Source: Candidatus Magasanikiibacteriota bacterium (lineage in GTDB: Bacteria > Patescibacteriota > Patescibacteriia > Magasanikbacterales > GWA2-37-8). From it: 64,000 bases of DNA. Shown one piece after another: positions 5,045-63,926 of this stretch (position 1 is the stretch's first letter; every line of letters starts with the position of its first letter). The stretch lies in the NCBI GenBank assembly GCA_009694865.1, contig SICD01000001.1, positions 403 to 64,402 of the forward strand, written 5' to 3'. Under the pieces are notes generated by a model. It saw only the letters and a program-made list of their open reading frames with translations. It did not search any database and was not told where the DNA came from. The position numbers were made by a program, and so were the translations under genes.

Positions 5045-5608
5045 CTACTTGCCGCGCGGGAGGACGTAGCGGGCGCCGAAGTCGTTGCCGACCCAGCCGA
5101 AGTCGAGCACCCACGCGTCGCCGCGCCAGAACAGGCCGGCGACGTAGAGGTTGCAGTCGGAGCGGCGCAGGCGAGTTGCGGTGAAGACGATGGCCTTCTT
5201 GCCCCGGAACTCCTCCGGGATGAGGTGCGGGTTGTCCCGCAGGTACACCGCGTCCAGGAGACCCTTGTTGGCCTCGAGGATCATCGCGCGACCGCACATC
5301 ACCTCGCCGACCACCGAGCCGCCGTCGCCCTCCTCGAAGAACGAGGGGTATTCGATCCCATTGGCCTTGAAGAGGGTGGGGATGACATCGGTCTCGACCG
5401 TAAAGCCGTGCTTAGCGGCTTCGGCGCTCGAGGGGAACTGCAGGTCGCCGCCGACGGCCTCGAACCGGCCTTCCGTGAGCGCCTGAAGCGCCACGTCCAG
5501 CTGGTCTGTGTCGAAGGGGTAGCCTTCCCGCTGCCGGAGCTGGCGGACGATCTCCAGCAACTTCCCGTCCAACTTGTAGTACTGATCGCCAGTGACGATA
5601 GTCGCCAT
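5045..5608 (-). CDS. Hypothetical protein (187 aa) carried on a conspicuously high-G+C island; probably horizontally acquired
   Basis: G+C is about 65% by eye against mid-40s flanks, with codons ending in G or C. A canonical SD (aggag) lies 6 nt upstream of the ATG at 5608 (plus strand ctcct at 5614-5618). It has its own terminator at 4921-4957. The plus- and minus-strand ORFs 5042..5626, 5151..5486, 5299..5724 and 5412..5645 are GC-rich shadows. Confidence 0.6.
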   Translation of the reverse strand: MATIVTGDQYYKLDGKLLEIVRQLRQREGYPFDTDQLDVALQALTEGRFEAVGGDLQFPSSAEAAKHGFTVETDVIPTLFKANGIEYPSFFEEGDGGSVVGEVMCGRAMILEANKGLLDAVYLRDNPHLIPEEFRGKKAIVFTATRLRRSDCNLYVAGLFWRGDAWVLDFGWVGNDFGARYVLPRGK

Positions 5609-10102: not shown

Positions 10103-11800
10103 TTACATCTTTTCTACCACTTTAATTCCCAAAAGATAGAGGCCGCGCTTGGCGACTGTGAGAACGCTTTTAATTAATTGAGCTCGAAAAATTCTAGTAG
10201 CACCTTCAGATTTTACTACCGAGCAGGCTGCATAAAAATCGCTAAAGCGTTGCGCGAGTACCAGCAAATAATGAGCAATAAGCGAAGGATCCGGCAATGC
10301 CGCCGCCCGTGCTGTGACCGCTCCAAATTCGCCTAGCAATAATAATAGCCGTTTTTCTTCTAAAACAATCGTCTCCGGAATCTCGCCGAGACTAAGAGTG
10401 CCAATTTTTTCTAAAATACTGCGAATACGCGCGCACATATACAAAAGATACGGCCCAGAATCACCCGTTAAACTCACCGAAGTTTTAAAATCAAACGCAA
10501 TATCATTCTCAATTCCCGTCTTAAGAAACGCATACTTAACCGCCGCCAAAGCAACATTTTTAATAACATCGTCCTTGTTTGGAAGATCGCTCTCGCTCAT
10601 AATTTGCGTCACTTCTTTTTCTGCTTCGTCCAAAAGCCACTCCCCTAAAACCACTTTGCCTGTGCGCGAACTCATTTTCCCCTCTTTAAGTTTGACCCAA
10701 CCATATTCTAAATGCCGCTCTCGCTCCTTGCTTTTTGGCAAAGTAAATTCTAAAGCTTTAAACAACACTTTAAAATATTCCGATTGTTCCTTGGCCACCA
10801 CATGATAAATTGCTACTGGGTCAAACTCAGCAAATTGTTTTTCCGCCAAAGCCAAATCCTTGGCTTCATACGTAGGGAAGCCTTTGCTGTTTAAAAACAC
10901 CCGGTCGTGCAAACCAAATTCAGAGCCTTTAAAAATCACCGCGCCCTCACTTTGCACAAAAATTTCTTTTACCACGCACTCTTTCACAATTTCCCGTCCA
11001 CGCGCGAACACTTCCGATTCAAAATACAACCGGTCAAACCGACTCCCCACGCGCGCATAAATAGCGTCAAAATATTCCAAACTCCAGCCCCTCGTCTCCG
11101 TGTACATTTCTCGAATGGATTCGTCGTGAGTGTAAATCGATTCATTAATCTCCCCAATTTCGGCTTTAACCTTTTCATCTTGTTCAAACGTCTGACTCCC
11201 CAAAGCATAAGCCTTGCCCAAAAACGCCACGCGCTCGGTAATCGTTTTATTTTTTACCGTCTCATATTCAGCTCGCAGCTGCCGCACTCCCCACAAACAT
11301 TTGGCAATGTGCATACCCACATCACCCTGATAATTCGCTCGCACCACTTCGTATCCGGCATTCTCCAAAATTCGCACTAAACTCTCGCCCGTCACGATAT
11401 TTCGTAAATGACCAATATGAAAAGCTTTGTGTGTGTTCGGATGCGCGAACTCCACTATCACTTTTTTACCTTTCCCAATTTCACCCATGCCATAATCATC
11501 ACCCCGGCGCGTAATTTCTTCAATCACCATTCTAGCCACCTCCGCTCCATTAAGAAAAAAATTCACATACGATCCCACCGCGCGCACGTCACTCACCATT
11601 CTTAATTCTTCATTCTTAATTCTTAATTCCAATTCTTTGGCCACTTCCACCGGACTCTTTTTTTGAGTCTTCGCGATCCCAAAACACGCGAACGCGAAAT
11701 CACCCATCTCGGCTTTAGGTGGAGCGGTAAATTCAATTGCGCCTTCCACTCCCACGGAGCGGAGCGCGGCTTCTAATTCACTGGTTATCTTAAAAGACAT
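10103..11800 (-). CDS. argS: Arginyl-tRNA synthetase
   Basis: Class I HIGH region EFAHPNTHKAFHIGHLRN, and the ArgS-type C-terminus ...AKRGLYLLGIKVVEKM. The likely start is MSFKITSELEAAL (ATG at 11798-11800). Confidence 0.8.
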   Translation of the reverse strand: MSFKITSELEAALRSVGVEGAIEFTAPPKAEMGDFAFACFGIAKTQKKSPVEVAKELELRIKNEELRMVSDVRAVGSYVNFFLNGAEVARMVIEEITRRGDDYGMGEIGKGKKVIVEFAHPNTHKAFHIGHLRNIVTGESLVRILENAGYEVVRANYQGDVGMHIAKCLWGVRQLRAEYETVKNKTITERVAFLGKAYALGSQTFEQDEKVKAEIGEINESIYTHDESIREMYTETRGWSLEYFDAIYARVGSRFDRLYFESEVFARGREIVKECVVKEIFVQSEGAVIFKGSEFGLHDRVFLNSKGFPTYEAKDLALAEKQFAEFDPVAIYHVVAKEQSEYFKVLFKALEFTLPKSKERERHLEYGWVKLKEGKMSSRTGKVVLGEWLLDEAEKEVTQIMSESDLPNKDDVIKNVALAAVKYAFLKTGIENDIAFDFKTSVSLTGDSGPYLLYMCARIRSILEKIGTLSLGEIPETIVLEEKRLLLLLGEFGAVTARAAALPDPSLIAHYLLVLAQRFSDFYAACSVVKSEGATRIFRAQLIKSVLTVAKRGLYLLGIKVVEKM

Positions 11801-13458: not shown

Positions 13459-15680
13459 TTTTGAATCATAAGTAGTTTTTCTTTTTCCTTTCCATACATC
13501 TCACTCCAAATCGCCTCCGTCACAAACGGCATAAACGGGTGCAGGAGCTTGAGCGACATAATAAGATTATGGAGAAGAATTTTTTTAGTATTATCCGCAA
13601 ACGCTTCGTCAACTAATTGCGTTTTGCTCGCCTCCAAATACACATCGGCCAATTTGTGCCACACAAAATCATAAATAGTTTGCGCCGCTTCGTGCAAACG
13701 AAACGCTTCAAGACCGCTCGTCACTCCCTCAATCGTTTGTTGTAATTCGAGAATAATGGTTTTATCGGCCTCAGTCTTCGTTTCAATCGATTTGGAGCTT
13801 GAAATTTGGAGCTTGGAAACTTCCAGATTTGTCAAAACAAATCTGGCGATGTTCCACAACTTATTCGCGAAATGCTTCATACCCTTAACCTTATCTTCCG
13901 CCAACGGAATATCGTTACCCGCCGCAGTGGAAAACACCAGCGCGAAACGAAGCGCGTCCGTACCATAGGTATCAATAACTCCTAACGGATCAATCACATT
14001 CCCCTTACTTTTGCTCATTTTCTGACGATCTTTATCGCGCACCAGGCCATGCAAAAATATTTTTTCAAATGGCGGTTTGCTAGTTCGATAATATGACATC
14101 ATTACCATTCTAGCCACCCAGAAAAAAATAATATCCCAACCAGTTTCCATTACTTGCGTAGGAAAATAGGTTTCAAAATCTTTGGTACCATGCTTGGCAT
14201 CATTCGCCATAAGCGTGGCGTACGGCCACTGACCGGACGAAAACCAAGTGTCGAAAGTATCAGGATCATGAATAATTTCTGTAGAATCACAATGCGGGCA
14301 GACTGTCAGAGTATTCTCAACATCAACAATCACACCATTCTTCATTCGACATTCGTCATTCTGCATTCGCTGACAGTACCACACTGGCAGCGGTATCCCC
14401 CACCAAATTTGGCGGCTAATTGGCCAATCGCGAATATTTTCCATCCAGTGACGATATGTTTTTTCGAATTTCTCCGTAACAATCTCTACTTCTTTTTTGT
14501 CGAGCGCCTGGACGGCCATATCGCGAAGCGAAGGGCGGCCATCGGGCAATTGCTTGGTCATGGCAATGTACCACTGCGGCACAATTTGCGGCTCAATGAG
14601 ATTACCACATTTGTAGCAGAGCTGGACATTGTGCTTATATTTATCATCAATATGGTCTACCAACCCTTTGCCTTGTAGTTTCTCCACAATTTTAACGCGC
14701 GCGTCCAAAATTTTCATACCCGAAAACTCTCCGGTCATCGGGAGCATTTTACCTCGTTTGTCTATTACCTGTTCAACATCCAATTTGTGCCGCTCCGCAA
14801 TCTCAAAATCCACCGCCGAGTGTGCTGGAGTGATGGTCATAACGCCGGTACCAAATTCCATATCCGCGGCTTCATCTTTTATAACGGTGGCGGTAATGGA
14901 TCCGTTAATCCATTCTAAATTTAATTTATCACCATGTTTATACCGGGTGTAGCGCTTATCATCCGGATGCATAACAACATATTTATCGCCAAATTTTGTT
15001 TCGGGACGCGATGTGCCAATAACAAACGGACCGTATTTAAAATAATAAAATTGTTCTTGGCGCTCTTCATATTTCGTTTCTAAATCTGCCAAACCGGTTT
15101 GATGCTTGGGACACCAATTGCAAATACGACCCGCACGATAAATTAGACCATCGGCGTACATTTGTTTAAACGTGGCGTAAACGACTTTAACAATTTCCGG
15201 ATCAAGACTAAAAATATTTCGGCTCCAATCGCATGACGCCCCCAAACGGCGAATACCATTCTCGCTCAAATGCTTGTTATGTTGCACAAAATCCCAACAC
15301 GCTTTATAGAATTCCTCACGCGTCATTTTAAAACGGCTGGTGCCTTCTTTCTCTAATTTTTTTTCAAATACCACCTGGGTTTCAAAACCAGCGTGGTCGG
15401 TGCCCGGCAACCACAAAGCTCTGCGCCCGCGCATGCGGTGATACCGAGTTAAAATATCTTGAATTGTTAAACCCAAAGCATGCCCCACGTGCAAGGGAGC
15501 GTTGGCGTTGGGGAGCGGGAGCATTATCGTAAAGGGCCTTCGCTCCGCTTCGCTTAGATTATCCACCCAAGGCAGATGCGCCTCGGGCGCAAAAAAACCG
15601 CTGTCTTCCCAGCGCTTATAAATATCGGCCTCGTATTGGCCAGGGTCGTAAGCTTTAGCTAATTCTTCCATAGTCTCCAT
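13446..15680 (-). CDS. valS: Valyl-tRNA synthetase, short form (744 aa; the C-terminal coiled-coil appears absent). Its 3' end overlaps tyrS by 13 nt.
   Basis: PNANAPLHVGHALG...LWLPGTDHAGFETQ, WPISRQIWWGIPLPVWYC, KMSKSKGNVIDP. Confidence 0.85.
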   Translation of the reverse strand: METMEELAKAYDPGQYEADIYKRWEDSGFFAPEAHLPWVDNLSEAERRPFTIMLPLPNANAPLHVGHALGLTIQDILTRYHRMRGRRALWLPGTDHAGFETQVVFEKKLEKEGTSRFKMTREEFYKACWDFVQHNKHLSENGIRRLGASCDWSRNIFSLDPEIVKVVYATFKQMYADGLIYRAGRICNWCPKHQTGLADLETKYEERQEQFYYFKYGPFVIGTSRPETKFGDKYVVMHPDDKRYTRYKHGDKLNLEWINGSITATVIKDEAADMEFGTGVMTITPAHSAVDFEIAERHKLDVEQVIDKRGKMLPMTGEFSGMKILDARVKIVEKLQGKGLVDHIDDKYKHNVQLCYKCGNLIEPQIVPQWYIAMTKQLPDGRPSLRDMAVQALDKKEVEIVTEKFEKTYRHWMENIRDWPISRQIWWGIPLPVWYCQRMQNDECRMKNGVIVDVENTLTVCPHCDSTEIIHDPDTFDTWFSSGQWPYATLMANDAKHGTKDFETYFPTQVMETGWDIIFFWVARMVMMSYYRTSKPPFEKIFLHGLVRDKDRQKMSKSKGNVIDPLGVIDTYGTDALRFALVFSTAAGNDIPLAEDKVKGMKHFANKLWNIARFVLTNLEVSKLQISSSKSIETKTEADKTIILELQQTIEGVTSGLEAFRLHEAAQTIYDFVWHKLADVYLEASKTQLVDEAFADNTKKILLHNLIMSLKLLHPFMPFVTEAIWSEMYGKEKEKLLMIQKWPI

Positions 15681-33668: not shown

Positions 33669-34859
33669 TTATTTTTTTAAAGCTTCAATCCCTGGCAATT
33701 TCTTACCACCTAAAAATTCTAACATCGCACCGCCACCAGTAGAAACGAGATTTATCTTATTAATTATACCACACTTCTTAAGTATCTCCACACTTTCACC
33801 GCCACCTACGATGCTAAAAGCCTTGGTTTTTCCCAAAAGCTTCATTAAAGCAAAAGTGCCTTTCTCATAAGGACGCACTTCAAACTTACCCATGGCACCA
33901 TTCCACAAAATCGTCCCCGCCTTTTTAAGGTAGGTACTAAACAATTCTACGGTTTGTGGGCCAATATCATACATTCCATGGTCATTGGGAACGGCCATGG
34001 GTGAGAGCGCAGAGAAAACCCTAACGTCACCTCCTTGTGGTGCCCCCACCACGCAATCAACTGGCAAAACTACTTTTTTATTTTTACAATATTTTAAAAT
34101 ATCCGCCTTAAAATCTTTGCCAACGAGCGACTGCCCCACGGTACTTCCTTTGGCCCACCAATAGGTGTTGGCAATTTCGCCGCCCACTAAAATGTAATCG
34201 GCCTTCTGTAGTAGATGGCGTACAATCGGAATTTTTGTTTCCACTTTAGCGCCGCCGAGCAAAACCACCAAAGGCCGTTTTGGTTTTTCCATCGCGCGAG
34301 ACAAAACGCTTACTTCTTCAAAAAGTAACAAACCAGCAAAATGCGGGAGATACTTGGCCACGCCCGTAATCGAGGCCGCGTCGCGGTGCGCGACCGCGAA
34401 ACAATCTGAAACAAAAATATCAGCCAGCGCCGCCAGTGCTTTGGCAACATTCGGGTCATTATCTTCTTCTCCCTTAACAAACCGAATATTTTCGAGCATC
34501 GCCAGTTCGCCGTTTTTTAATTTTTCAATCGCTCGACCGACAATCTTCCAATCTTGTAATCTTCCAATCTTCACAAATGCCACCAACTGCTTCAACAATT
34601 TCTCAAGATGCTCCACAACCGGTTGTAGGCTCAGCTTAGTGTCAACCCCCTTCGGCCTCCCCAAATGACTCACCAAAATAACTTTCGCTCCTTTTTTGAT
34701 AAGATACTGAATTGTTGGTAAAGTTTTTTTAATTTTAAAATCATCTTTCACTTTCCCATTTTCAAGCGGTACATTAAAATCAACCCGCACTAATACTCGT
34801 CTGCCTTTTACATCCTTTATTTCTTTAATTGATCGTATATACATAAAATCTCGGCTCAA
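33669..34859 (-). CDS. pgk: Phosphoglycerate kinase
   Basis: Canonical PGK N-terminus ...RVLVRVDFNVP and C-terminus ...VSTGGGAMLEFLGGKKLPGIEAL. Confidence 0.9.
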   Translation of the reverse strand: MSRDFMYIRSIKEIKDVKGRRVLVRVDFNVPLENGKVKDDFKIKKTLPTIQYLIKKGAKVILVSHLGRPKGVDTKLSLQPVVEHLEKLLKQLVAFVKIGRLQDWKIVGRAIEKLKNGELAMLENIRFVKGEEDNDPNVAKALAALADIFVSDCFAVAHRDAASITGVAKYLPHFAGLLLFEEVSVLSRAMEKPKRPLVVLLGGAKVETKIPIVRHLLQKADYILVGGEIANTYWWAKGSTVGQSLVGKDFKADILKYCKNKKVVLPVDCVVGAPQGGDVRVFSALSPMAVPNDHGMYDIGPQTVELFSTYLKKAGTILWNGAMGKFEVRPYEKGTFALMKLLGKTKAFSIVGGGESVEILKKCGIINKINLVSTGGGAMLEFLGGKKLPGIEALKK

Positions 34860-46164: not shown

Positions 46165-46222
46165 CTAAAATTTTCAAAACAGACTATACTATTGTTAGTC
46201 TGTTTTTGTTTAGTATTTCACT

Positions 46223-46336
46223 TGTCATCCCGAGCGAGGCTCGCGCCGACGAGGTCTCGCGATCCCTCGTAGGGGAATCTCTGTCCGTCGGTTGTTGATT
46301 GAGCCAGAGATTCCTCCTTCGTCGTCGGAATGACAA
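46223..46336. repeat. MITE family A copy abutting the prfA start codon
   Basis: cttgtcatcccgagcgaggctcgcgccgacgaggtctcgcgatccc...cttcgtcgtcggaatgacaa. The prfA ATG is 4 nt after the element. Confidence 0.7.
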
Positions 46337-46339
46337 TTG

Positions 46340-47422
46340 ATGACCGACCATGAAAAATATATGCTCGCCAAGTACTCGCATCTCTTAACCAAGTTCAAAT
46401 CCCTCGAAACCTCTTTGCAAAATCCAGAGGTTATTAATGATGCCAAAAAATTAAAGGACGCCTCCCAGGAATATACCGATATGAAACCGGTCGCGGAAAA
46501 AATCTCTGAATTGTATTCAATTGAAAAGAATATTGCCGAGACAGATTTAATGCTCGCGAGCGATGGTGATACCGAAATACAAAACTTGGCCACTGGCGAG
46601 CTACTCGAACTCCGAGACAAAAAAACCGCTCTGGAAACCAAACTCGCCGACCTCACCCGCCCTCAAGACCCCCTTAATAAAAAAAATGTGATTGTGGAAA
46701 TTAGGGCCGCGGCCGGGGGCGACGAATCGGCCCTATTCGCGGCCGAGCTGTTCCGCATGTATTCCAAATACGCGGAAAGTAAAAAATGGAAAACCTCGTT
46801 TATCGATTCCAGTCAAATTGGCATTGGCGGATTTAAAGAAGTGCTTTTTTCGGTTAAGGGGCATGACGTCTACAAAGATTTAAAATGGGAAATGGGCGTG
46901 CACCGCGTGCAACGCGTGCCCGAAACCGAAAAAGCCGGCCGGGTGCACACCTCCACCGTAACGGTAGCGGTGATGCCCGAAATTGAGGAAACTGAATTAA
47001 AAATTGATCCTAAAGACTTGCGTATCGACACCATGACCGCCGGCGGCCACGGCGGGCAGAGCGTGAATACCACCTATTCGGCGGTGCGCATTGTGTATAT
47101 TCCCACCGGTATGATTGTACAATGTCAGGATGAGCGTAGCCAGCAAGCCAACCGGGAAAAAGCCATGGCGGTACTCCGCGCGCGCCTGTTTGACATTGAA
47201 CGAGCCAAAAAAGCAGAGGAACTATCGGCCAAACGCCAAGCGCAAATCGGCACCGGCGATCGCAGTGAAAAAATCCGTACCTACAACTTCCCCCAAGACC
47301 GCATTACCGACCACCGAATTCATGCCAGCTGGAATAATATTGGCACGATTTTAGAAGGCAACTTAGAGCCAATTATTACCGCGCTACAAAAAGCGGAGCA
47401 TGAACAACAAGACAAAGATTAA
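46340..47422 (+). CDS. prfA: Peptide chain release factor 1
   Basis: GGQ motif [18 protein letters not shown], and an RF1-type PxT tripeptide region [18 protein letters not shown]. Confidence 0.9.
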
Positions 47423-47455
47423 AAGACTGGAAGATTACAAGATTGCCATTTGACA

Positions 47456-47470
47456 CAATCTTCTAATCTT
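47456..47470 (+). repeat. Left 15-bp direct repeat (caatcttctaatctt) flanking high-GC cassette B
   Basis: It is identical to 47937-47951. The extended similarity is gattgcca...caatcttctaatctt versus gattgtcgcaatcttctaatctt. Confidence 0.7.
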
Positions 47471-47525
47471 TTGATCTTTCTCTGATCAAACCGCGCCAGC
47501 GGATTCTGGAATTTTGGAGGGAAAC

Positions 47526-47831
47526 ATGCCGGGACCGGGAGTAAGTCGTTGGCACCGAGTGCTGCTGGCACTCGATCTGTGCGTCGAGCAAGTGCGAATG
47601 GCGCTGTCATTGCCGGCGCCGGGAAACATCGAGTTGATTCGTCTCCAGCATCGCTGGGTGCGGAGAAGGCTCGGACTGGAAAGGCGGCATGAGGCTGTTA
47701 TCTTTTGGTTCGATGGCGGAAAGACCGGCATCTGCCAAATGTGTAACGAAGACGTGGCTTTCGAGCAGGGGGGAAGCCACCCGACCAATTGCCCGGGCCC
47801 GCCCAACACCACCGACCGTTCTGGCCGGTGA
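47526..47831 (+). CDS. Small hypothetical Cys-containing protein (101 aa) on high-G+C cassette B
   Basis: ggagg at 47516-47520 precedes the ATG at 47526 (MPGPGVSRWHRV...CQMCNEDV...NCPGPP). It is G+C-rich and has its own terminator at 47865-47897. The antisense ORFs 47419..47610 and 47486..47812 are rejected. Confidence 0.5.
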   Translation: MPGPGVSRWHRVLLALDLCVEQVRMALSLPAPGNIELIRLQHRWVRRRLGLERRHEAVIFWFDGGKTGICQMCNEDVAFEQGGSHPTNCPGPPNTTDRSGR

Positions 47832-47864
47832 AGAGCGATGCCGGCGCTAACCCCGGCTCATCCA

Positions 47865-47897
47865 AAAACAGCTTTTTTAAAAGGCTGTTTTTGTTTG
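47865..47897 (+). terminator. Rho-independent terminator of cassette B
   Basis: aacagc-ttttttaaaag-gctgtt followed by tttgttt. Confidence 0.5.
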
Positions 47898-47936
47898 CGT
47901 TGACTGAAGTGTGGTGGTACAGTACGATGATTGTCG

Positions 47937-47951
47937 CAATCTTCTAATCTT
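47937..47951 (+). repeat. Right 15-bp direct repeat (caatcttctaatctt) flanking cassette B, 8 nt upstream of the prmC ATG
   Basis: Identical to 47456-47470. Confidence 0.7.
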
Positions 47952-47958
47952 AAAATTC

Positions 47959-49083
47959 ATGCCAACTATCAAAATTTTACAAAAACGATACCATAGCCAA
48001 ATAAACGAGCTTGACTTTAGCATTCTTCTCGCTCACGCTATTAACAAACCGCGAGAATTCCTCTACGCTCACCCCAACTTTCCGCTTTCCGCTTTCGCCT
48101 ACGCGCGCCTAAGGTATTTTTTGTTTCACTACAAACGCGGCTATTCCGTTGCCGCCATTACCCACCATAAAGAATTTTACGGGTTAAATTTTTATGTGAA
48201 CAAAGACACCCTCATCCCCCGCCCCGAAACTGAACTGCTGGTTGAAGAAGCCATTGCGGCAATTAAAACCCCCCCCTCGCGGGGGGGCTCGGGGGGGTGT
48301 TGGCTCATCGACGTTGGCACTGGGAGCGGGTGTATTCCAATCACGATCGCCACACACCTCAATTGTCATCCTGAGCGCAGCGAAGGATCTCTGTCTCAAT
48401 CGGGAGCGGACAGAGATTCTTCGATCGCTAAGCTCCCTCAGAATGACAGTTTAAAAATATTTGCGACGGACATTTCTAAATCAGCGCTTCGCGTCGCCCG
48501 TAAAAACGCTCGAATACAAAATGTATCCATAAACTTTTTACACGGTAACCTCCTCGAACCGTTCGTAAAACAGATCAACACCGCAACACATCAACACCGC
48601 AACACTTTAACAATTGAACAATTGAACAATCAAACTATTATAATAACAGCAAATCTTCCGTATCTTACTCCGATTCAATTCGAAGCCGAACCAAGTATCC
48701 AACGCGAACCTCGCTCCGCCTTGGTTGCGGAAAATAGCGGCCTCGCATTGTACGAAAAATTGTTACAACAAATTTCTCATCTTTCTCCGTCTGTCATTTC
48801 GACGACACGTTCGCTACGCTCAGTGCAGGCTCCGGAGGAATCTCTGGCTCAATCGGCAAAACGGACAGAGATTCCCCTACGAGGGATCGCGAGACCTCGT
48901 CGGCCGCGAGACCTCACTCGGAATGACAAACTAAAAATGATCATTTTTTTCGAAATCGATCCTTCCCAAACACAAAAAATATCCTCTCTCGTAAAAACCT
49001 ATCTTCCTTTGGCCTCTATCGAAATAAAAACCGACCTCGCGGGGCGAGATCGGGTGGTGAAAATTAACCTTACGTTACCTTAG
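47959..49083 (+). CDS. prmC: Release-factor glutamine N5-methyltransferase (PrmC/HemK) carrying three in-frame repeat insertions
   Basis: NLPY variant of NPPY (ITANLPYLTP) and a SAM-binding motif IDVGTGSGCI. The product is about 90 aa longer than typical PrmC. The extra segments coincide with hairpin 48271-48287, MITE 48364-48449 and MITE 48792-48929. Confidence 0.75.
   Translation: MPTIKILQKRYHSQINELDFSILLAHAINKPREFLYAHPNFPLSAFAYARLRYFLFHYKRGYSVAAITHHKEFYGLNFYVNKDTLIPRPETELLVEEAIAAIKTPPSRGGSGGCWLIDVGTGSGCIPITIATHLNCHPERSEGSLSQSGADRDSSIAKLPQNDSLKIFATDISKSALRVARKNARIQNVSINFLHGNLLEPFVKQINTATHQHRNTLTIEQLNNQTIIITANLPYLTPIQFEAEPSIQREPRSALVAENSGLALYEKLLQQISHLSPSVISTTRSLRSVQAPEESLAQSAKRTEIPLRGIARPRRPRDLTRNDKLKMIIFFEIDPSQTQKISSLVKTYLPLASIEIKTDLAGRDRVVKINLTLP
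48364..48449. repeat. MITE subfamily A2 copy in-frame within prmC
   Basis: attgtcatcctgagcgcagcgaaggatctctgtctcaatcgggagcggacagagattcttcgatcgctaagctccctcagaatgacag. Confidence 0.65.
48792..48929. repeat. MITE family A copy in-frame within prmC
   Basis: ctgtcatttcgacgacacgttcgctacgctcagtgcaggctccggaggaatctctggctcaatcgg...gggatcgcgagacctcgtcggccgcgagacctcactcggaatgacaa. Confidence 0.65.
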
Positions 49084-52844: not shown

Positions 52845-53186
52845 TTATTGTCGAGTCGCTTCCTTTTGGAACTCATCTTGTAACATAAATTGGTACCCAT
52901 CAATAATCTCATCCACCGTAATTGATTCGGCCGTGTGGAGCCGTTCCACGTCAGCAAAATTTAAATCTGTTACCATACCCACCGAACTAAGACCCTGTCC
53001 CAAAAGCACAATCATGGCCACAAAACCACTCCCACAACCCTGGCACGTCAGGTGCACCAGGCTCGCTGTTTCATTTTTAGCAAAAATTTTAGCCGCGTCA
53101 GGCTCGTAATCGGCCTTACAAATTGGGCAACGGCTCATCATTTTAAGCGCCTCCCGCCATCTATCCGATTGAGAAACAGACTTCAT
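52845..53186 (-). CDS. Small zinc-ribbon protein (CxxC...CxxC), hypothetical
   Basis: ...MMSRCPICKADYEP...LTCQGCGSGFVAMIVLLG.... Backbone-like composition. Confidence 0.4.
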   Translation of the reverse strand: MKSVSQSDRWREALKMMSRCPICKADYEPDAAKIFAKNETASLVHLTCQGCGSGFVAMIVLLGQGLSSVGMVTDLNFADVERLHTAESITVDEIIDGYQFMLQDEFQKEATRQ

Positions 53187-53240: not shown

Positions 53241-53286
53241 AAGAGTATAAATACTCTTGACGTCACTTACTAGTATAGACTATAGT
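53241..53286 (+). promoter_or_regulatory. Perfect 18-bp palindrome (aagagtataaatactctt) overlapping a putative promoter (TTGACG-N18-TATAGT) of cassette C. Candidate operator.
   Basis: Palindrome 53241-53258, -35 ttgacg at 53257-53262, -10 tatagt at 53281-53286. Confidence 0.4.
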
Positions 53287-53316
53287 GAACCTGTCGTCAA
53301 ACCAAGGAGGCTCCCG

Positions 53317-53835
53317 ATGAGTCGTGAAATCCCGCACCAGATGATGCTCTTGGCCTTTCTCTCGCTTTTCCGAGCGCTCCGCGTTCAGCGCCGCTTCTCG
53401 GTAGAACAGCGGGAGACGCTGGTCACGGCGCTGCCCCAACCGTACTCGCTCGGATCGGCTCCGATGGATCTGCAAATCGCCTGGAACATGCTGGGGCGGA
53501 CCCTCGACCTCCCTCTGGGAGAAACCGCCCTCAACAACGAACGCGGCCTCGCGAAGAAGGCTCCGCTCCGACCCACGAATTGGGATCTGATCGCCGCACT
53601 CGCGTCGCTGTTCCGTGTCCTCAAGGCAACACGAGCGTTCCGGCGAGAGAAACTTCATGAGCTCCGATGCCAGCTGCTGGAACCGCTCGGACGCGAGAGC
53701 CGGTACATGCCACCCGCCACAGCCTGGGAGACGATCAGGCTCGGACTCTTGCATGGCTCCTTTGAGATGCTCGGACTCTCGCTCAAGCACTTCAAGAAGA
53801 GGCATGCGGCTCCACAAAAGACGAAAACGGGGTGA
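53317..53835 (+). CDS. Hypothetical helical protein (172 aa) on high-G+C cassette C
   Basis: aaggagg at 53304-53310 precedes the ATG at 53317 (MSREIPHQMMLLAFLSLFRAL...). Visibly G+C-rich. A hairpin and a T-rich region follow the stop. The antisense ORFs 53263..53853, 53385..53624 and 53655..53843 are rejected. Confidence 0.5.
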   Translation: MSREIPHQMMLLAFLSLFRALRVQRRFSVEQRETLVTALPQPYSLGSAPMDLQIAWNMLGRTLDLPLGETALNNERGLAKKAPLRPTNWDLIAALASLFRVLKATRAFRREKLHELRCQLLEPLGRESRYMPPATAWETIRLGLLHGSFEMLGLSLKHFKKRHAAPQKTKTG

Positions 53836-53944
53836 ACCCCCAAGGAGAGACAACCAAAGGACGGCGAGCGACTCCGCTCGCCGTCCCAGCTTCTAAAAAA
53901 TAAACCAGTCGCTCACAAGTGACTGATTTTTATTTCTCCCGCCA

Positions 53945-55468
53945 TCAGTGGGATACCGCTCGCCGCGGGACAATTTGTCTCGTTCTTCGTTTTCTATGAA
54001 ACGTAATCGCGAACCGGTGCGCTTCGTCGCGAACCTGAATTAATAATCTCTGATGCCGAGTAACCCACGCAATAAATTCCGGACTCTTATCTCCTAAAAT
54101 TATATCGTTACGTTTGCGCTCTCTCCCTTTGGCAATACCGACGATTGGAATTCTGCGCACAGACGCATTGCTATGCGTCTCTACAAAGTTCCGCGCCCGA
54201 CTCACTTGCGGCCGTCCCCCGTCAATCAAAATGACATTTGGGAACTGCCATTCCGCGTGCTTAAACCGGCGCTCCAAAACTTCTGCCAATGAATCAACAT
54301 CACTCTGCCCAAAAACAGTTTTAATAATAAACTTTCGATACTCCGATTTCACCGGACCCTCCTCATTAAACACCACCATACTCCCCACTTTTTCGGAAGC
54401 ACCTAAGTTGGAAATATCATAACCTTCGATTCGGAGCTTCCTCTCCCCCCGAGCCCCCTCTCTGGCAGAGGGGGACACACCGCCTCCCCCTCTTTCTAAG
54501 AGGGGGCGTGGGGGAGTTGCCGTCGCCGTGTCAACAAAACTCTTATTCAAAAGCGCAATATCCTGAATTCTACGCAGAGAGTGTAATTGGTCACGCAGTC
54601 TCGCCGCGTCTTCAAACCGCTCGTCTTTCCCCGCCCGCTTCATCTCCATTTCAAAAATTTTAATAACCTGCTTTTTCCGACCTGACAAAAATGTCACCAG
54701 CGGCCGAATGATCTGCCGTCGATACTCGGCTGAACTAATCTCACCCGTGCACACCCCCGGACACCACCCCATTTGGCGATACAGGCACACTCGACTTCCA
54801 GGCACACAATTACTAAACCGAAACATCCGCCGCAACAACTTCATCGCCGCCTTCGTATTCAACCCCGGATACGGCCCAAAAACATAGGCAAAGGCGTCAT
54901 CACGAGCGAGCTTAAGGCGAGCGTCGTGATCCCCTTGCTGTAAAAACTTATTTAGTTCGGGGGATTGCGACGTCGCTGCGCTCCTCGCAATGACGCTGTA
55001 CTCCCGCTCCCGCATTGTCAAAACTTTTGGATATTCGTCTTTGCTGACGAGAATATAATTCCAACTCTTATCATCCTTTCCATCCACATTATACTTGGGC
55101 TGGAATTTTTTAATGTACTCCGCTTCCAAAATAATCGCCTCAAGCGCCGACTCGGTCTCCTTCCACTTAATATCTACCACCTCATGAATCATTCCCTCAA
55201 TCGGACGACTCACAACCGCACTGTCATTCTGAGCGGAGGCTCGCGCCGTAGTCGAAGAATCCCTCTCACCGTGGTAAGGGGATTTCTCCACTTCGTTCCT
55301 TTGTCGCTGTGGTCGGAATGACAATCGAAAATACGACCGCACCCGACTCCGGAGCGACGTCGCCTTGCCCACATACACCAATTCTTTTTGGGAATTATAA
55401 AAAAGATATACCCCCGGCGAATCTGGCAAACTAACTAAAATTTTACCGACACCATCTGCCTTATCCAT
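53945..55468 (-). CDS. uvrC: Excinuclease ABC subunit C, with in-frame repeat insertions
   Basis: GIY-YIG N-terminus (PGVYLFYNSQKELVYVGKA) and a UvrC RNaseH-like/endonuclease C-terminal region. The hairpin cluster 54425-54520, the A3 half-element 54959-54995 and MITE 55221-55324 are all translated in-frame. Confidence 0.85.
   Translation of the reverse strand: MDKADGVGKILVSLPDSPGVYLFYNSQKELVYVGKATSLRSRVRSYFRLSFRPQRQRNEVEKSPYHGERDSSTTARASAQNDSAVVSRPIEGMIHEVVDIKWKETESALEAIILEAEYIKKFQPKYNVDGKDDKSWNYILVSKDEYPKVLTMREREYSVIARSAATSQSPELNKFLQQGDHDARLKLARDDAFAYVFGPYPGLNTKAAMKLLRRMFRFSNCVPGSRVCLYRQMGWCPGVCTGEISSAEYRRQIIRPLVTFLSGRKKQVIKIFEMEMKRAGKDERFEDAARLRDQLHSLRRIQDIALLNKSFVDTATATPPRPLLERGGGGVSPSAREGARGERKLRIEGYDISNLGASEKVGSMVVFNEEGPVKSEYRKFIIKTVFGQSDVDSLAEVLERRFKHAEWQFPNVILIDGGRPQVSRARNFVETHSNASVRRIPIVGIAKGRERKRNDIILGDKSPEFIAWVTRHQRLLIQVRDEAHRFAITFHRKRRTRQIVPRRAVSH
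54959..54995. repeat. Half copy of MITE subfamily A3 in-frame within uvrC
   Basis: gggggattgcgacgtcgctgcgctcctcgcaatgacgc. Confidence 0.55.
55221..55324. repeat. MITE family A copy in-frame within uvrC
   Basis: ctgtcattctgagcggaggctcgcgccgtagtcgaagaatccctctcaccgtggtaaggggatttctccacttcgttcctttgtcgctgtggtcggaatgacaa. Confidence 0.65.
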
Positions 55469-60100: not shown

Positions 60101-60182
60101 ACAGAATCATGCCGAGCAATGTCCTTTGAAGCTCGGCGGATTTAACAGAATCATGCCGAGCAATGTCCTTTGAAGCTCGACG
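60101..60182. repeat. Tandem duplication (2 copies of 38 bp, period 44) of a hairpin-containing 38-mer in the uvrA 5' leader
   Basis: acagaatcatgccgagcaatgtcctttgaagctcg[g/a]cg at 60101-60138 and 60145-60182. Each copy contains the stem gccgagc/gctcggc. Confidence 0.65.
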
Positions 60183-60570: not shown

Positions 60571-62931
60571 CTACCCATTGCCCCCGACCACTCGGTCGGG
60601 TTTTTTATTAGAGAGCGCTTTGATTTTCGGCGTTCCCGAAACTTTCACCCTCGTCCGCAATTCCCGCAACTCATCCCTGAGTATCGCCGCCAACTCAAAC
60701 TCTAACCCCTTCGCCGCCTCCCGCATCTGTTTCTCTTTATCTTTAATAATTTCCTCCATCGGCCGCGCATCGCCGAGCAAATCCAAATCAAGAGTTGAAA
60801 TCGCTCCGGTGCGGCCTTTTAGCCCTCTCCCGGCTCTCGCGCCTTTTGAGCCTTTAGCATTTCCCCCATCTCGACTAACACCAAACTCTTCGAGAATATT
60901 CCTAATTGTTTTTTCAATCGTCTTCGGCGTAATGCCATGTTCTTTATTATACGCCAACTGAATTGTGCGACGACGGTCTGTTTCTTTAATCGCTCGTTCC
61001 ATGGAACCCGTCATATTATCCGCATACAACACTACTTGCCCATTCACATTCCGCGCCGCCCGGCCAATCGTCTGAATGAGTGACGTTTCACTGCGCAAAA
61101 ATCCTTCTTTATCCGCGTCTAAAATTGCCACCAGTGATACCTCGGGCATGTCAAGCCCTTCGCGCAACAAGTTAACCCCCACCAACACATCATGTTTACC
61201 CAGCCGCAAATCCATAATAATCTCAATCCGTTCCAACGTGAGCACATCACTATGAATATACGCCACTTTAATTTTTTTCTCTTTTAAATACTCCGTTAAA
61301 TCCTCCGCCATTTTTTTCGTGAGGGTGGTCACGAGCACTCGCTCACCCTGCTTAATCCGTTCGTCGATGCGGATAAGGAGGTCCTCGACTTGCGACTTTC
61401 CTAAATTGTCATTCTGAGCCCCGTCAGGGGTGGCCGAAGAATCTTCCTTTTTTCTATTCGGAAGATCCTTCGCTCCGCTCAGGATGACATTTTTATTTTT
61501 ACCGGTGATGGGCCTCACCACCACCTCTGGATCAATCAACCCCGTCGGCCGCACCACCTGCTCCACAACTTGCTCACTTTCCTTAATTTCATAGGGTGTT
61601 GGCGTAGCAGACACGTACACAAGCTGTCCCACACGCTCTTCAAATTCCTTATACTGAAGCGGCCGATTATCACGCGCACTGGGAAGACGAAAACCATGCT
61701 CAACCAGAGTATCTTTGCGTGCCCGGTCGCCATTATACATCCCTCTGATTTGAGGAACGGTAACGTGGGACTCGTCGATGATGGTGAGGAACCCCCGAGA
61801 CATCCCCTCACCCGACCTCTCCCGCGGGGAGAGGAGGCGCTTCCCCTCGCCCCGCGGGAGAGGGACGGAGGGTGAGGGTTCGGTCGCACTATACCTAAAA
61901 TAATCCAACAACGTAAACGGCGGCTCCCCTTCCGCGCGCCCTTCAAAATGCCGCGAATAATTTTCAATGCCGTTGCAATACCCAATATTTTTTATCATCT
62001 CCAAATCATACGCCACTCGCCGCTTTAACCGTTCATATTCCAAAACTTTCCCCTGCCGTTCAAACACCGCGAGTTGTTCGTCGAGCTCGCTTTTGATTCT
62101 CGCAAACGCCTGTTGACGAGAGGCCTCACTCACCACATAATGCTTCGCCGGAAAAAACCAAACATCAGACTCGCGCCTGATGTTTGTCCTGAGGCCGCGC
62201 ACGGCCGAAGGACCCCTCTCATCAACATCCGAACTAGCAAGAACCGCCCGAGTAACACGATCTAATTTTTCAATTCGGTCGATATGGCTCGAGATCTCGA
62301 ATCGATAAATCGCATCCTCATTCACCGGCATTATTTCAAACACCTGCCCGTGCAACCGAAAACTGCCCCGCTTTAGTTCGCTGTTCGTCCGCTCAAATTG
62401 CATCGCGACCAATTGTTCCAACATCGCCCGCCGATCAAGTTCATCCCCCCGTCGCAAATGCAAAACAATTTTTTCATATTCTTTAGGAGACCCCAAACCG
62501 TAAATCGCCGAAACCGATGCCACAATAATAACATCCCGCCGCGTCAACAACGCCTGCGTACACGCATGCCGCAACCGATCAATCTCCTCGTTCACCTGCG
62601 CCTCTTTTTCAATATAAGTATCACTCCCCGGCATATACGCCTCGGGCTGGTAGTAATCATAATAACTAACAAAATATTCTACCGCGTTATCAGGAAAAAA
62701 TTCCCGAAATTCATTACACAACTGCGCCGCCAAAGTTTTGTTATGCGCAATAACAAGCGTTGGCATTTGCACCTGTTGAATCACATTCGCCATCGTAAAG
62801 GTCTTTCCCGAACCGGTTACGCCAAGCAATGTCTGCTTCCGCATTCCCTGCTCCAAACCCAAAACAAGCCTTTCAATGGCTTTGGGCTGGTCTCCATCTG
62901 GCTGGTATTTTGATTTTATTTTGAATTGCAT
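60571..62931 (-). CDS. uvrB: Excinuclease ABC subunit B, with in-frame repeat insertions
   Basis: The start [22 protein letters not shown] is the UvrB N-terminus (ATG at 62929-62931). Helicase motifs GVTGSGKT and the C-terminal UVR domain are present. MITE 61406-61490 and the family-B element 61803-61877 are read through in-frame (...[26 protein letters not shown]...). Confidence 0.9.
61406..61490. repeat. MITE subfamily A2 copy in-frame within uvrB
   Basis: ttgtcattctgagccccgtcaggggtggccgaagaatcttccttttttctattcggaagatccttcgctccgctcaggatgacat. Confidence 0.65.
61803..61877. repeat. Palindromic element family B copy in-frame within uvrB
   Basis: tcccctcacccgacctctcccgcggggagaggaggcgcttcccctcgccccgcgggagagggacggagggtgaggg. 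Nearly identical to 6747-6824. Confidence 0.65.
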
Positions 62932-63086: not shown

Positions 63087-63926
63087 TCACACATCCAACG
63101 GACTCACAATCCCCGCGATCGCCGTACTCGCCACATGCGTATAAATTTGCGTCGTCTGCAATTTGGCATGGCCCAACAATTCCTGAATATACCTAATATC
63201 CGTCCCCGCTTCCAAAAGATGCGTAGCGAAACTATGCCGCAACGTATGCGGCGAAACATTTTTTTGTATCCCCGCCTTCTGCGCCGCCGCACCCACAACT
63301 TTCTGAATCGTCGCTTCCGTTAGCCGACTACCTCTACCATTGGTAAAAAGATAATCATCCGCCATTTTTAATTTTTGTTGCTTTAACAAAATTTCTTTCA
63401 ACGCTTTCGGAATAATTGTCTGCCGATCCTTTTTCCCTTTCCCCTGATACACCCGCAAAATCATCCTGTCCAAATCCACATCTCGCATTTTAATGTGCGT
63501 CAACTCACTAACCCGCACTCCCGTGCCATATAAAAGAGAAATAATACAATTGTGTTTAGGGTTTTCCGTCACCTCAATAATTTTGGCCACCTCCGCCTTA
63601 GACAAAACATTGGGCAAATGCTTTTCTTTTTTCGCGCGTGGCAAATTTACAAAAAACCTGCGATACAAAATCTTACCAAAATAAAATAACAGCGCGCTGT
63701 ACGCTGTATTTATAGTAGAAGCAGAAAAATCTTCGCTACTCAAATACTCCAAATATGCCCTCACGTCAGCCTGCGAAACGCTCCGCGCATCTTTATTAGC
63801 AAAACGCAAAAACTCTCCCACATAATGTAAGTAACTTTTAATGGTTTTAACACTGAACCCTCGCAAAACCATCTCCTGCTTAAGCAAAATAACCGGATCC
63901 CTACTTGGCCGATAATGTGTATCCAT
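63087..63926 (-). CDS. Tyrosine site-specific recombinase, XerC/XerD family
   Basis: N-terminal SAM-like core-binding domain. C-terminal catalytic motifs ...HTLRHSFATHLLEAGTDIRYIQELLGHAKLQTTQIYTHV. Confidence 0.8.
   Translation of the reverse strand: MDTHYRPSRDPVILLKQEMVLRGFSVKTIKSYLHYVGEFLRFANKDARSVSQADVRAYLEYLSSEDFSASTINTAYSALLFYFGKILYRRFFVNLPRAKKEKHLPNVLSKAEVAKIIEVTENPKHNCIISLLYGTGVRVSELTHIKMRDVDLDRMILRVYQGKGKKDRQTIIPKALKEILLKQQKLKMADDYLFTNGRGSRLTEATIQKVVGAAAQKAGIQKNVSPHTLRHSFATHLLEAGTDIRYIQELLGHAKLQTTQIYTHVASTAIAGIVSPLDV

Follow-up and report, generated by a model that had tools for sequence, protein, structure and literature searches.

Several kinds of mobile or repeated DNA leave short repeats next to bacterial genes. 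Transposons and miniature inverted-repeat transposable elements (MITEs) lie between direct repeats that arise by target-site duplication (TSD), and such duplications are usually 2-14 bp long. Integrase-mediated islets and cis-mobilisable elements (CIMEs) are bounded by attL and attR sites, with short identical repeats around DNA acquired next to the 3' end of a conserved gene; CIMEs have no recombinase of their own. Integron cassettes are small, compact orphan open reading frames (ORFs) of deviant composition beside an imperfect hairpin. Repetitive extragenic palindromic (REP) sequences and bacterial interspersed mosaic elements (BIMEs) are imperfect palindromes at gene 3' ends that form stable hairpins and occur in dispersed copies; REP-type elements have been linked with rearrangement and with roles as terminators or mRNA stabilisers. 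Here, we describe a locus in a 64-kb stretch of DNA (the window) from a metagenome-assembled genome (MAG) of Candidatus Magasanikbacteria, a lineage of the candidate phyla radiation (CPR, or Patescibacteria), in which a 15-bp direct repeat lies on either side of a GC-rich orphan gene, ORF-B, between prfA and prmC. An earlier note on this DNA had read the repeats as a TSD, or as an attachment (att) core, at the edges of an inserted cassette. We conclude that the locus is a small acquired gene bounded by short repeats from a REP-like palindrome, and as such is of a kind already known.

The locus resembles each of these systems in part. As in REP elements and BIMEs, there is a stable, imperfect palindrome at a gene 3' end, with what may be dispersed copies (three loci in the window, one homologue in another genome and related arrays with a period of 7 nt in two relatives), and full and partial copies lie close together. 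Unlike REP sequences, which have a GC-rich consensus of 20-40 nt, the hairpin has AT-rich arms composed of tandem 7-8-nt units; moreover, it fills a spacer from stop codon to start codon, and related arrays are found in frame within pgk and prmC. Identical short repeats (here, a 15-bp core) around DNA acquired next to a conserved gene's 3' end, with no recombinase inside, are also a feature of CIMEs; the unit described here, in contrast, is only 0.48 kb with a single small ORF, the repeat comes from a recurring hairpin family rather than a unique site, and no cognate integrase, attP or attB site or excision product is known. Transposons and MITEs share the direct repeats around an inserted segment, but here the repeat is overlong, there are no terminal inverted repeats or other copies, and the edges do not coincide with the boundary between native and foreign DNA. 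The compact orphan ORF beside an imperfect hairpin recalls an integron cassette; in contrast to such cassettes, it has its own terminator, the full hairpin is upstream of the ORF, the unit stands alone instead of forming an array, and there is no recognisable IntI, attI or attC-type site (R''/L''/L'/R' boxes), attC boxes being judged without formal modelling. ORF-B is followed by a terminator hairpin of the ordinary type, and the 13 window proteins that were scanned include no integron integrase. A literature search on intergenic palindromes in CPR bacteria gave nothing specific.

The direct repeat and the hairpin at the 3' end of prfA

The 15-mer CAATCTTCTAATCTT occurs exactly twice in the window, both times on the plus strand, at 47456-47470 and 47937-47951, with an inner distance of 466 nt. 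As the earlier note had reported, similarity continues on the 5' side, such that 19 of 21 positions are equal between 47450-47470 and 47931-47951 (TTGaCaCAATCTTCTAATCTT versus TTGtCgCAATCTTCTAATCTT); the right copy ends 7 nt, rather than 8 nt, before the prmC start codon (ATG at 47959). That reading did not include the hairpin of which the left copy is the 3' arm (5' arm at 47431-47445), the continuation of this hairpin beyond the 15-mer, or a promoter-like site inside the interval.

The complete, AT-rich hairpin extends over 74 nt (47410-47483), starting in the last codons of prfA. Its predicted RNA fold has a free energy of -25.1 kcal/mol (z -4.3), and none of 200 shuffled sequences folded as well. 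The 5' arm, which includes the prfA stop codon, consists of about four 8-nt units (AAGATTAA AAGACTGG AAGATTAC AAGATTG); the 3' arm reads CAATCTT CTAATCTT TTGATCTT TCTC, and the loop contains TTGACA. The units of the two arms can be summarised as AAGATTNN and NNAATCTT. The left 15-mer is the inner portion of the 3' arm, and the stem goes on for 13+3 bp past it into the putative cassette, with the 13 nt immediately inside the repeat (47471-47483) pairing with the last prfA codons. Complementarity to both copies of the repeat is found in the inner 5' arm (47431-47446; inverted repeats I2 and I3): over 16 nt, at 94%, to 47936-47951, and over 15 nt, with one mismatch, to 47456-47470. The hairpin is retained in the minimum-energy fold of the whole 576-nt region, in which the 5' arm does not pair with the distal 15-mer. 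In a reconstructed empty site, from which the cassette is deleted at the repeat, the hairpin reaches only -11.5 or -12.3 kcal/mol, compared with -25.1 kcal/mol as it stands. The hairpin at 47410-47483 is likely to act as a terminator or 3'-end stabiliser of prfA.

The right 15-mer overlaps a much smaller structure (47926-47944), GATGATTG-TCG-CAATCTTC, in which a single 5' unit is followed by a tip of 3 nt and the beginning of a 3' arm. Its fold energy of -4.1 kcal/mol is not significant alone; nonetheless, the stub can be aligned with the full hairpin and with an array in pgk, which also has GATTGTCG. From this alignment, the right copy looks like a truncated hairpin placed against the start of prmC. 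The prmC start, which the stub abuts, has no Shine-Dalgarno (SD) sequence.

The exact repeat is confined to these two positions, but with up to two mismatches the 15-mer has 7 matches in the window, where 0.15 are expected. These 7 matches fall in three loci: the prfA hairpin (both arms), the region upstream of prmC, and positions 34541-34571 in pgk; two of them are the inverted copies directly upstream of the left repeat. The array at 34541-34571 (minus strand; GAAGATTGGAAGATTACAAGATTGGAAGATTG) has four tandem 8-nt units, AAGATTGG AAGATTAC AAGATTGG AAGATTG, and lies in frame within an ORF that we read as pgk on the basis of a LENIRF motif only, where it encodes KIGRLQDWKI. Over 23 nt it is 95.7% identical to 47423-47445, it has 18 nt identical to those of the prfA hairpin 5' arm, and it shares GATTGTCG with the stub upstream of prmC. 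The window contains 4 exact direct repeats that are 15 nt or longer and no more than 3 kb apart, versus about 0.2 expected by our own estimate; these include one tandem repeat, one MITE terminus and one unexplained pair. The 15-mer pair is not due to chance, and its non-randomness is largely that of a recurring repeat motif. The possibility, named in the earlier note as an argument against its own reading, that the 15-mer is a frequent low-complexity sequence holds in part, in that it belongs to a recurring simple-repeat and hairpin family with 7 matches versus 0.15 expected.

We found a homologous hairpin in another organism. A metagenome scan with the pattern GATTGN{3,10}CAATCTTCTAATCTT gave 13 matches, roughly the number that we estimate to arise by chance, and all were single copies in unrelated contexts except for one hairpin in contig L096 (GC 0.38). 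This hairpin (2299-2363) is located in the spacer between nadE and a gene encoding an archaeal-type NMNAT-NadA fusion: the nadE stop codon is followed by GATTAAAAGACTGAAAGATTGAAAGATT-AA-CAATCTTCTAATCTTCTAATCTTCTAATCTTTC, and the next ATG is 5 nt further on. By our count, about 28 of 31 positions are common to the 5' arms of the L096 and prfA hairpins, including the imperfect units AAGATTAA and AAGACTG; the L096 5' arm lay outside the search pattern, yet still matched. The hairpin 3' end, AATCTTTC, is also common to the window and L096, and positions 47471-47483 match the end of the L096 hairpin. A scan of viral sequences with the 5'-arm pattern gave 5 matches, all in one phage gene where the sequence encodes IKRLEDY, and we rejected these as a coding coincidence.

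Related arrays are also present in relatives. AATCTTC units with a period of 7 nt are repeated two to three times inside prmC of L020 (8299-8320 and 8538-8565) and L081 (2040-2075 and 2220-2250), where they encode SSIFNLQSS-like peptides; the same three variable, insertion-tolerant loops hold other repeats in the PrmC of the window. Together, the AATCTT arrays (period 8 in the window, period 7 in L020 and L081) account for 13 matches, versus 0.2 expected in 700 kb. AT-rich hairpins that run from stop to start codon fill the prfA-prmC spacer of L081 (-36.8 kcal/mol), L001 (-27.4) and L010 (-35.9), and the tsf-rpsB spacer in the window (-33.7). Short spacers in this genome and its relatives are typically taken up by one long hairpin, with the 5' arm at the upstream stop codon and the 3' arm against the downstream start codon. 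Sequence comparison places the 15-mer in this recurring family of AT-rich intergenic hairpins and simple repeats.

ORF-B as a lineage-specific gain

The GC-rich core of the spacer is limited to 47488-47862, as seen in a 30-nt GC profile and a composition profile (~0.6 GC versus 0.47 for the window), and both flanks are host-like. The core is offset from the repeats, by 17 nt from the left repeat edge and by 74 nt from the right. It contains ORF-B (47526-47831, plus strand), which encodes an Arg-rich orphan protein of 101 aa. The GC content of ORF-B by codon position (0.65/0.51/0.68) follows a coding pattern, and its GC content at third codon positions (GC3) of 0.68 is 4.1 standard deviations above that of 41 host genes (0.48 +/- 0.05). 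An SD-like GGAGGG (47516-47521) was read directly from the sequence 4 nt 5' of the ORF-B ATG. A predicted intrinsic terminator (47863-47899) follows the gene, with a hairpin of 14 pairs (47863-47893) and then a T tract, TTTGCGTTGA. A promoter-like site directed towards prmC, TTGACT-17-TACGAT (47900-47928; 9 of 12 consensus matches), may serve as a promoter for that gene. The earlier note had described the interval of ~466 bp as containing exactly the ORF, its SD sequence and its terminator; the length and all three features stand, but the interval also holds the continuation of the prfA hairpin (47471-47483) and the promoter-like site.

The ORF-B terminator and that of rpmE (46186-46211), 1.7 kb upstream, have CTGTTTTTGTTT and an A-tract/stem layout in common, which suggests that the acquired gene may use a host-style or locally derived terminator. 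In the intervals 46176-46211 (CAAAACAGAC...GTCTGTTTTTGTTT) for rpmE and 47860-47896 (CAAAAACAGC...GCTGTTTTTGTTT) for ORF-B, the layout and a 12-mer are shared.

ORF-B matched no family in Pfam, PHROG, NCBIfam, PADLOC or PDB sequences, nor in a tblastn search of phages, and domain and family searches gave it no signature of a transposase, recombinase, HUH or HNH enzyme. When 1.84 billion representatives were searched exhaustively with HMMER, a sole homologue was identified, P0122 (48% identity, E 6.7e-10), encoded on an unrelated 2.4-kb, high-GC Logan contig (L083; SRR20823017) that also carries a paralogue fragment (L083:2-199). ORF-B, P0122 and this fragment have RHRRWR...GL and C-x2-C-x11-H-x3/4-(H/C) in common; the motif in ORF-B itself, C-x2-C-x11-H-x3-C, is zinc-finger-like, such that the protein may bind zinc. 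The AlphaFold model of ORF-B had a mean confidence (pLDDT) of 48.6, too poor for a fold search. Taken together, the sequence data indicate that ORF-B is a genuine gene of a very rare family. On L083 (1-2426), the two ORF-B paralogues (2-199, partial, and 1259-1570) lie upstream of a pyruvate-phosphate-dikinase-like gene, and a hairpin element of ~95 nt occurs twice (620-709 and 1120-1214), with 27-nt arms, 41 nt between them and no Rfam match.

To place the gene in its lineage, we compared the prfA-prmC region of relatives. The order prfA then prmC is kept in ~30 Magasanikbacteria, roughly half of which have overlapping or adjacent genes. In the six closest genomes that have no intervening gene (PrfA identity at least 76%: L081, 87%; L001, L002 and L082, 84%; L067, 80%; L076, 76%), the spacers are 1-255 nt long and contain hairpins or MITEs only. 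Neither ORF-B nor the 15-mer was found among the Magasanikbacteria relatives compared. The earlier proposal that the segment between the repeats is an insertion is therefore supported, with prfA and prmC adjacent or separated by a gene-free 1-255 nt in the closest relatives, and with a GC3 of 0.68 versus 0.48. Because relatives have no such gene, its composition is foreign, and it is an orphan apart from one distant family, the ORF-B segment is a lineage-specific gain. Larger prfA-prmC inserts in distant relatives, and in L003 (PrfA identity 76%), were considered as further mobile cassettes and rejected, since they are conserved lineage genes. A conserved multi-pass membrane protein of ~500 aa (motif YGDFWGDEMFSFVYSQKPW) is encoded between prfA and prmC in L003, L005, L007, L018, L019 and L020, and a ~240-aa protein also in L003 and L004; which genes the spacer contains thus differs between lineages, irrespective of ORF-B.

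Across all collections searched, the closest relative by PrfA is only 87% identical and has an unalignable spacer, and all close PrfA relatives are from Magasanikbacteria MAGs. The same gene order and spacing, with ORF-B, are found in an ENA assembly contig that was deposited separately, and a Logan contig (L102; SRR8561390) is 100% identical to the window and ends inside a MITE upstream of prfA. Exact-protein look-ups of PrfA (353, 360 and 361 aa), PrmC, ORF-B and L31 identified no strain-level variant or empty site; they returned only these two contigs, the ENA contig having the same arrangement, and so carry no information on polymorphism.

Origin of the direct repeat

We favour, with about even confidence, the explanation that foreign DNA was captured at a recombination-prone palindrome in the spacer, and that a piece of the palindrome arm was duplicated or carried in. 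In the ancestral state, an AT-rich palindrome of AAGATTNN and NNAATCTT units would have filled the prfA-prmC spacer. A foreign block of 0.37 kb with the zinc-finger-like orphan gene would have been captured beside or within it, presumably by illegitimate or short-homology recombination at the palindrome, and would have gained or brought host-style signals (SD sequence, terminator and outward promoter-like site). The arm piece would have been either duplicated in repair or imported from another copy of the same hairpin family. The outcome would be two copies of an arm piece of two 8-nt units, the left in the complete 74-nt hairpin and the right in a stub that has a single 5' unit and two 3' units around a 3-nt tip. 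On this explanation, the direct repeat would have arisen as a side effect of gene gain at a repeat element, and would be neither a transposase footprint nor a demonstrated attachment core.

Some observations weigh against this explanation. No empty site or strain variant was found, so the order of events and the mechanism are unobserved, and our view of the genome is 64 kb. The family is supported by one external homologue, from a search whose pattern already fixed 20 bases, and by arrays in relatives with a different period (7 nt). A perfect 15-mer beside very different loops (CCATTTGACA versus TCG) fits a recent short duplication or gene conversion equally with a carried-in copy.

A close rival, which we regard as possible but unlikely, is that the arm copies are older than the gene: slippage or spread of the array would already have given the spacer a full hairpin and a stub, and the block landed between them, with no causal link to the repeat. 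In favour of this, arrays of tandem 7-8-nt units readily slip and are found at several loci as well as in relatives, the right copy is complete with a tip and 5' unit of its own, and the GC-rich core stands 17 and 74 nt away from the left and right repeat edges. Close relatives, however, have one hairpin per spacer rather than a hairpin and a stub, and two neutral copies of some age, with diverged loops alongside, would not be expected to be identical at 15/15 positions unless conversion had acted. More doubtful is site-specific integration at an att-like core of 15-21 bp by a tyrosine recombinase acting in trans, with the segment as a cis-mobilisable remnant. In this scenario, incoming DNA with its own hairpin 3' arm would rebuild the prfA hairpin and push the native arm towards prmC, as in islands that target tRNA genes. 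The core is identical at both junctions (15/15; 19/21 when extended), the target is a conserved, structured site at a gene 3' end, the element-side arm (47456-47483) gives a better hairpin than the displaced arm would, and the window does contain a tyrosine recombinase gene at 63087-63926. Against this, the 481-bp unit neither contains nor adjoins a recombinase gene, and the sole recombinase among the 13 window proteins scanned, 15 kb away, has an ordinary Xer-type layout; beyond the hairpin family, no second cassette or core site is present in the window, and neither the window nor the 13 metagenome matches show the same core bounding other units or attB and attP separately. No relative of the segment was found in phage or viral collections, and attB and attP are unobserved. 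The recombinase (minus strand, 279 aa) has an N-terminal SAM-like domain.

A classical TSD, made by a transposase acting on a non-autonomous element at 47471-47936, would explain perfect direct repeats immediately around a compact unit of SD sequence, ORF and terminator, but we consider it very improbable. No terminal inverted repeats link the sequence from 47471 onwards with that ending at 47936; blastn of 47400-47960 against the window and 100 further loci recovered hairpin motifs only and no additional copy of the segment; the 13 nt with which the supposed element begins (47471-47483) belong to the native hairpin and match the end of the L096 hairpin, such that the repeats do not directly abut the element ends; ORF-B has none of the signatures of a mobile-element enzyme listed above; and a repeat of 15-21 bp exceeds the usual size. 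The repeat edge off the boundary between native and foreign DNA, the missing terminal inverted repeats and further copies, and the excess length lead us to reject a classical TSD. The proposal that the 15-mers mark cassette edges, whether as TSD or att core, is thus unsupported, given that the hairpin crosses the left edge, that there are no terminal inverted repeats, that no recombinase lies in or beside the segment, and that there is no second copy; nor does the window hold other cassettes with the same repeats, for which the earlier note had proposed a search. Least probable of all is a chance repeat or an assembly chimera. Roughly 0.2 direct 15-mer repeats within 3 kb are expected in 64 kb by our estimate, another unexplained pair exists (at 11526 and 14104), and the GC content of the insert differs from its surroundings; but the two copies share a 540-nt spacer, next to a third, inverted copy, and the motif is in excess as described above. 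A 15-mer is too short for a k-mer chimera, the ENA contig has the same order and spacing, and the insert is continuous on both sides and has a host-style SD sequence and terminator.

On present evidence, the repeat is more likely to be an ordinary recombination scar than an attachment core. The locus is a clean example of a streamlined CPR genome gaining an orphan gene in a conserved translation-factor operon, prfA-prmC, with the neighbouring genes open and apparently undisrupted; it also suggests that hairpins made of AT-rich arrays are places where these genomes are fragile or prone to recombine. Should the repeat be a true attachment core, it would represent a new mechanism of cassette capture in organisms with very few known mobile elements. 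A broader proposal, which we offer as speculation and think improbable, is that spacer-filling hairpins of 8-nt arrays serve CPR bacteria, and perhaps also further ultra-small microbes that are uncultivated, as sites of recombination or attachment, at which self-contained micro-cassettes of SD sequence, ORF, terminator and outward promoter are captured and perhaps exchanged. Duplication of the arm would then leave the upstream gene with its 3' hairpin and the downstream gene with its leader, in a system with a recombinase in trans that is distinct from integrons. Three aspects merit specialist attention: the family of hairpins, the repeats inserted in frame into essential genes, and the rare family of zinc-finger-like proteins.

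Neighbouring genes and other repeats in the window

The local gene order is tsf and rpsB (minus strand), rpmE, prfA, a 536-nt spacer and prmC. The prfA gene (46340-47422, plus strand; stop codon TAA at 47420-47422) encodes peptide chain release factor 1 (Pfam PCRF, E 3.6e-64; RF-1, E 8.2e-42), with 100% identity to an NCBI Candidatus Magasanikbacteria RF1 (P0002). The prmC gene (47959-49083, plus strand; Pfam PrmC_N, E 2.4e-05) encodes the release-factor glutamine methyltransferase and has in-frame repeat insertions, as seen by alignment with PrmC of L081 and L020; the protein is 374 aa long in the window, versus 292 aa in L081. Rfam and tRNA scans of the window gave no match to RNA genes.

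Two other high-GC ORFs are present in the window. One (5050-5608, minus strand; 186 aa) has a GC content of 0.65 and a GC3 of 0.90 in a genome of 47% GC, with its own GC-rich terminator, and is probably the "cassette A" of the earlier note; it has no match in Pfam, PHROG, NCBIfam or PADLOC. The other, an orphan with no family match (53263-53853, minus strand; 196 aa, GC 0.60, GC3 0.63), adjoins uvrC. Direct repeats flanking these two ORFs are limited to chance-level 11-mers, such as CTCCCGCCATC at 53151 and 53936 around the latter.

Termini of the form TGTCATYCYGAGC mark a MITE-like palindromic family, with 21 matches to the terminus in the 64 kb versus 0.13 expected. Copies include 46223-46336, 48364-48448, about 48790-48928, 55222-55323 and 61407-61489, and some lie in frame within essential genes (two in prmC, others in uvrC and uvrB), where the ORFs stay open. 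Several different tandem 8-nt units (GAAGATTA, GGTTTAAC/GGTTGAAG, GCATGGAC, AACGACAA...) also occur on L084 (JAEEGL013600188.1; 60-400 and 980-1110), in blocks on one side and as reverse complements ~600 nt away; the two sets flank an AT-rich segment with a perfect TTGACA-17-TATAAT promoter. The second exact 15-mer direct repeat in the window, the unexplained pair ACCATTCTAGCCACC (11526-11540 and 14104-14118), has its copies 2.6 kb apart in two different long ORFs and may be due to chance. Lastly, a tandem duplication with a period of 44 nt and a 35-nt exact core, ACAGAATCATGCCGAGCAATGTCCTTTGAAGCTCG, is located at 60101-60179, between a uvrA-like gene and uvrB.

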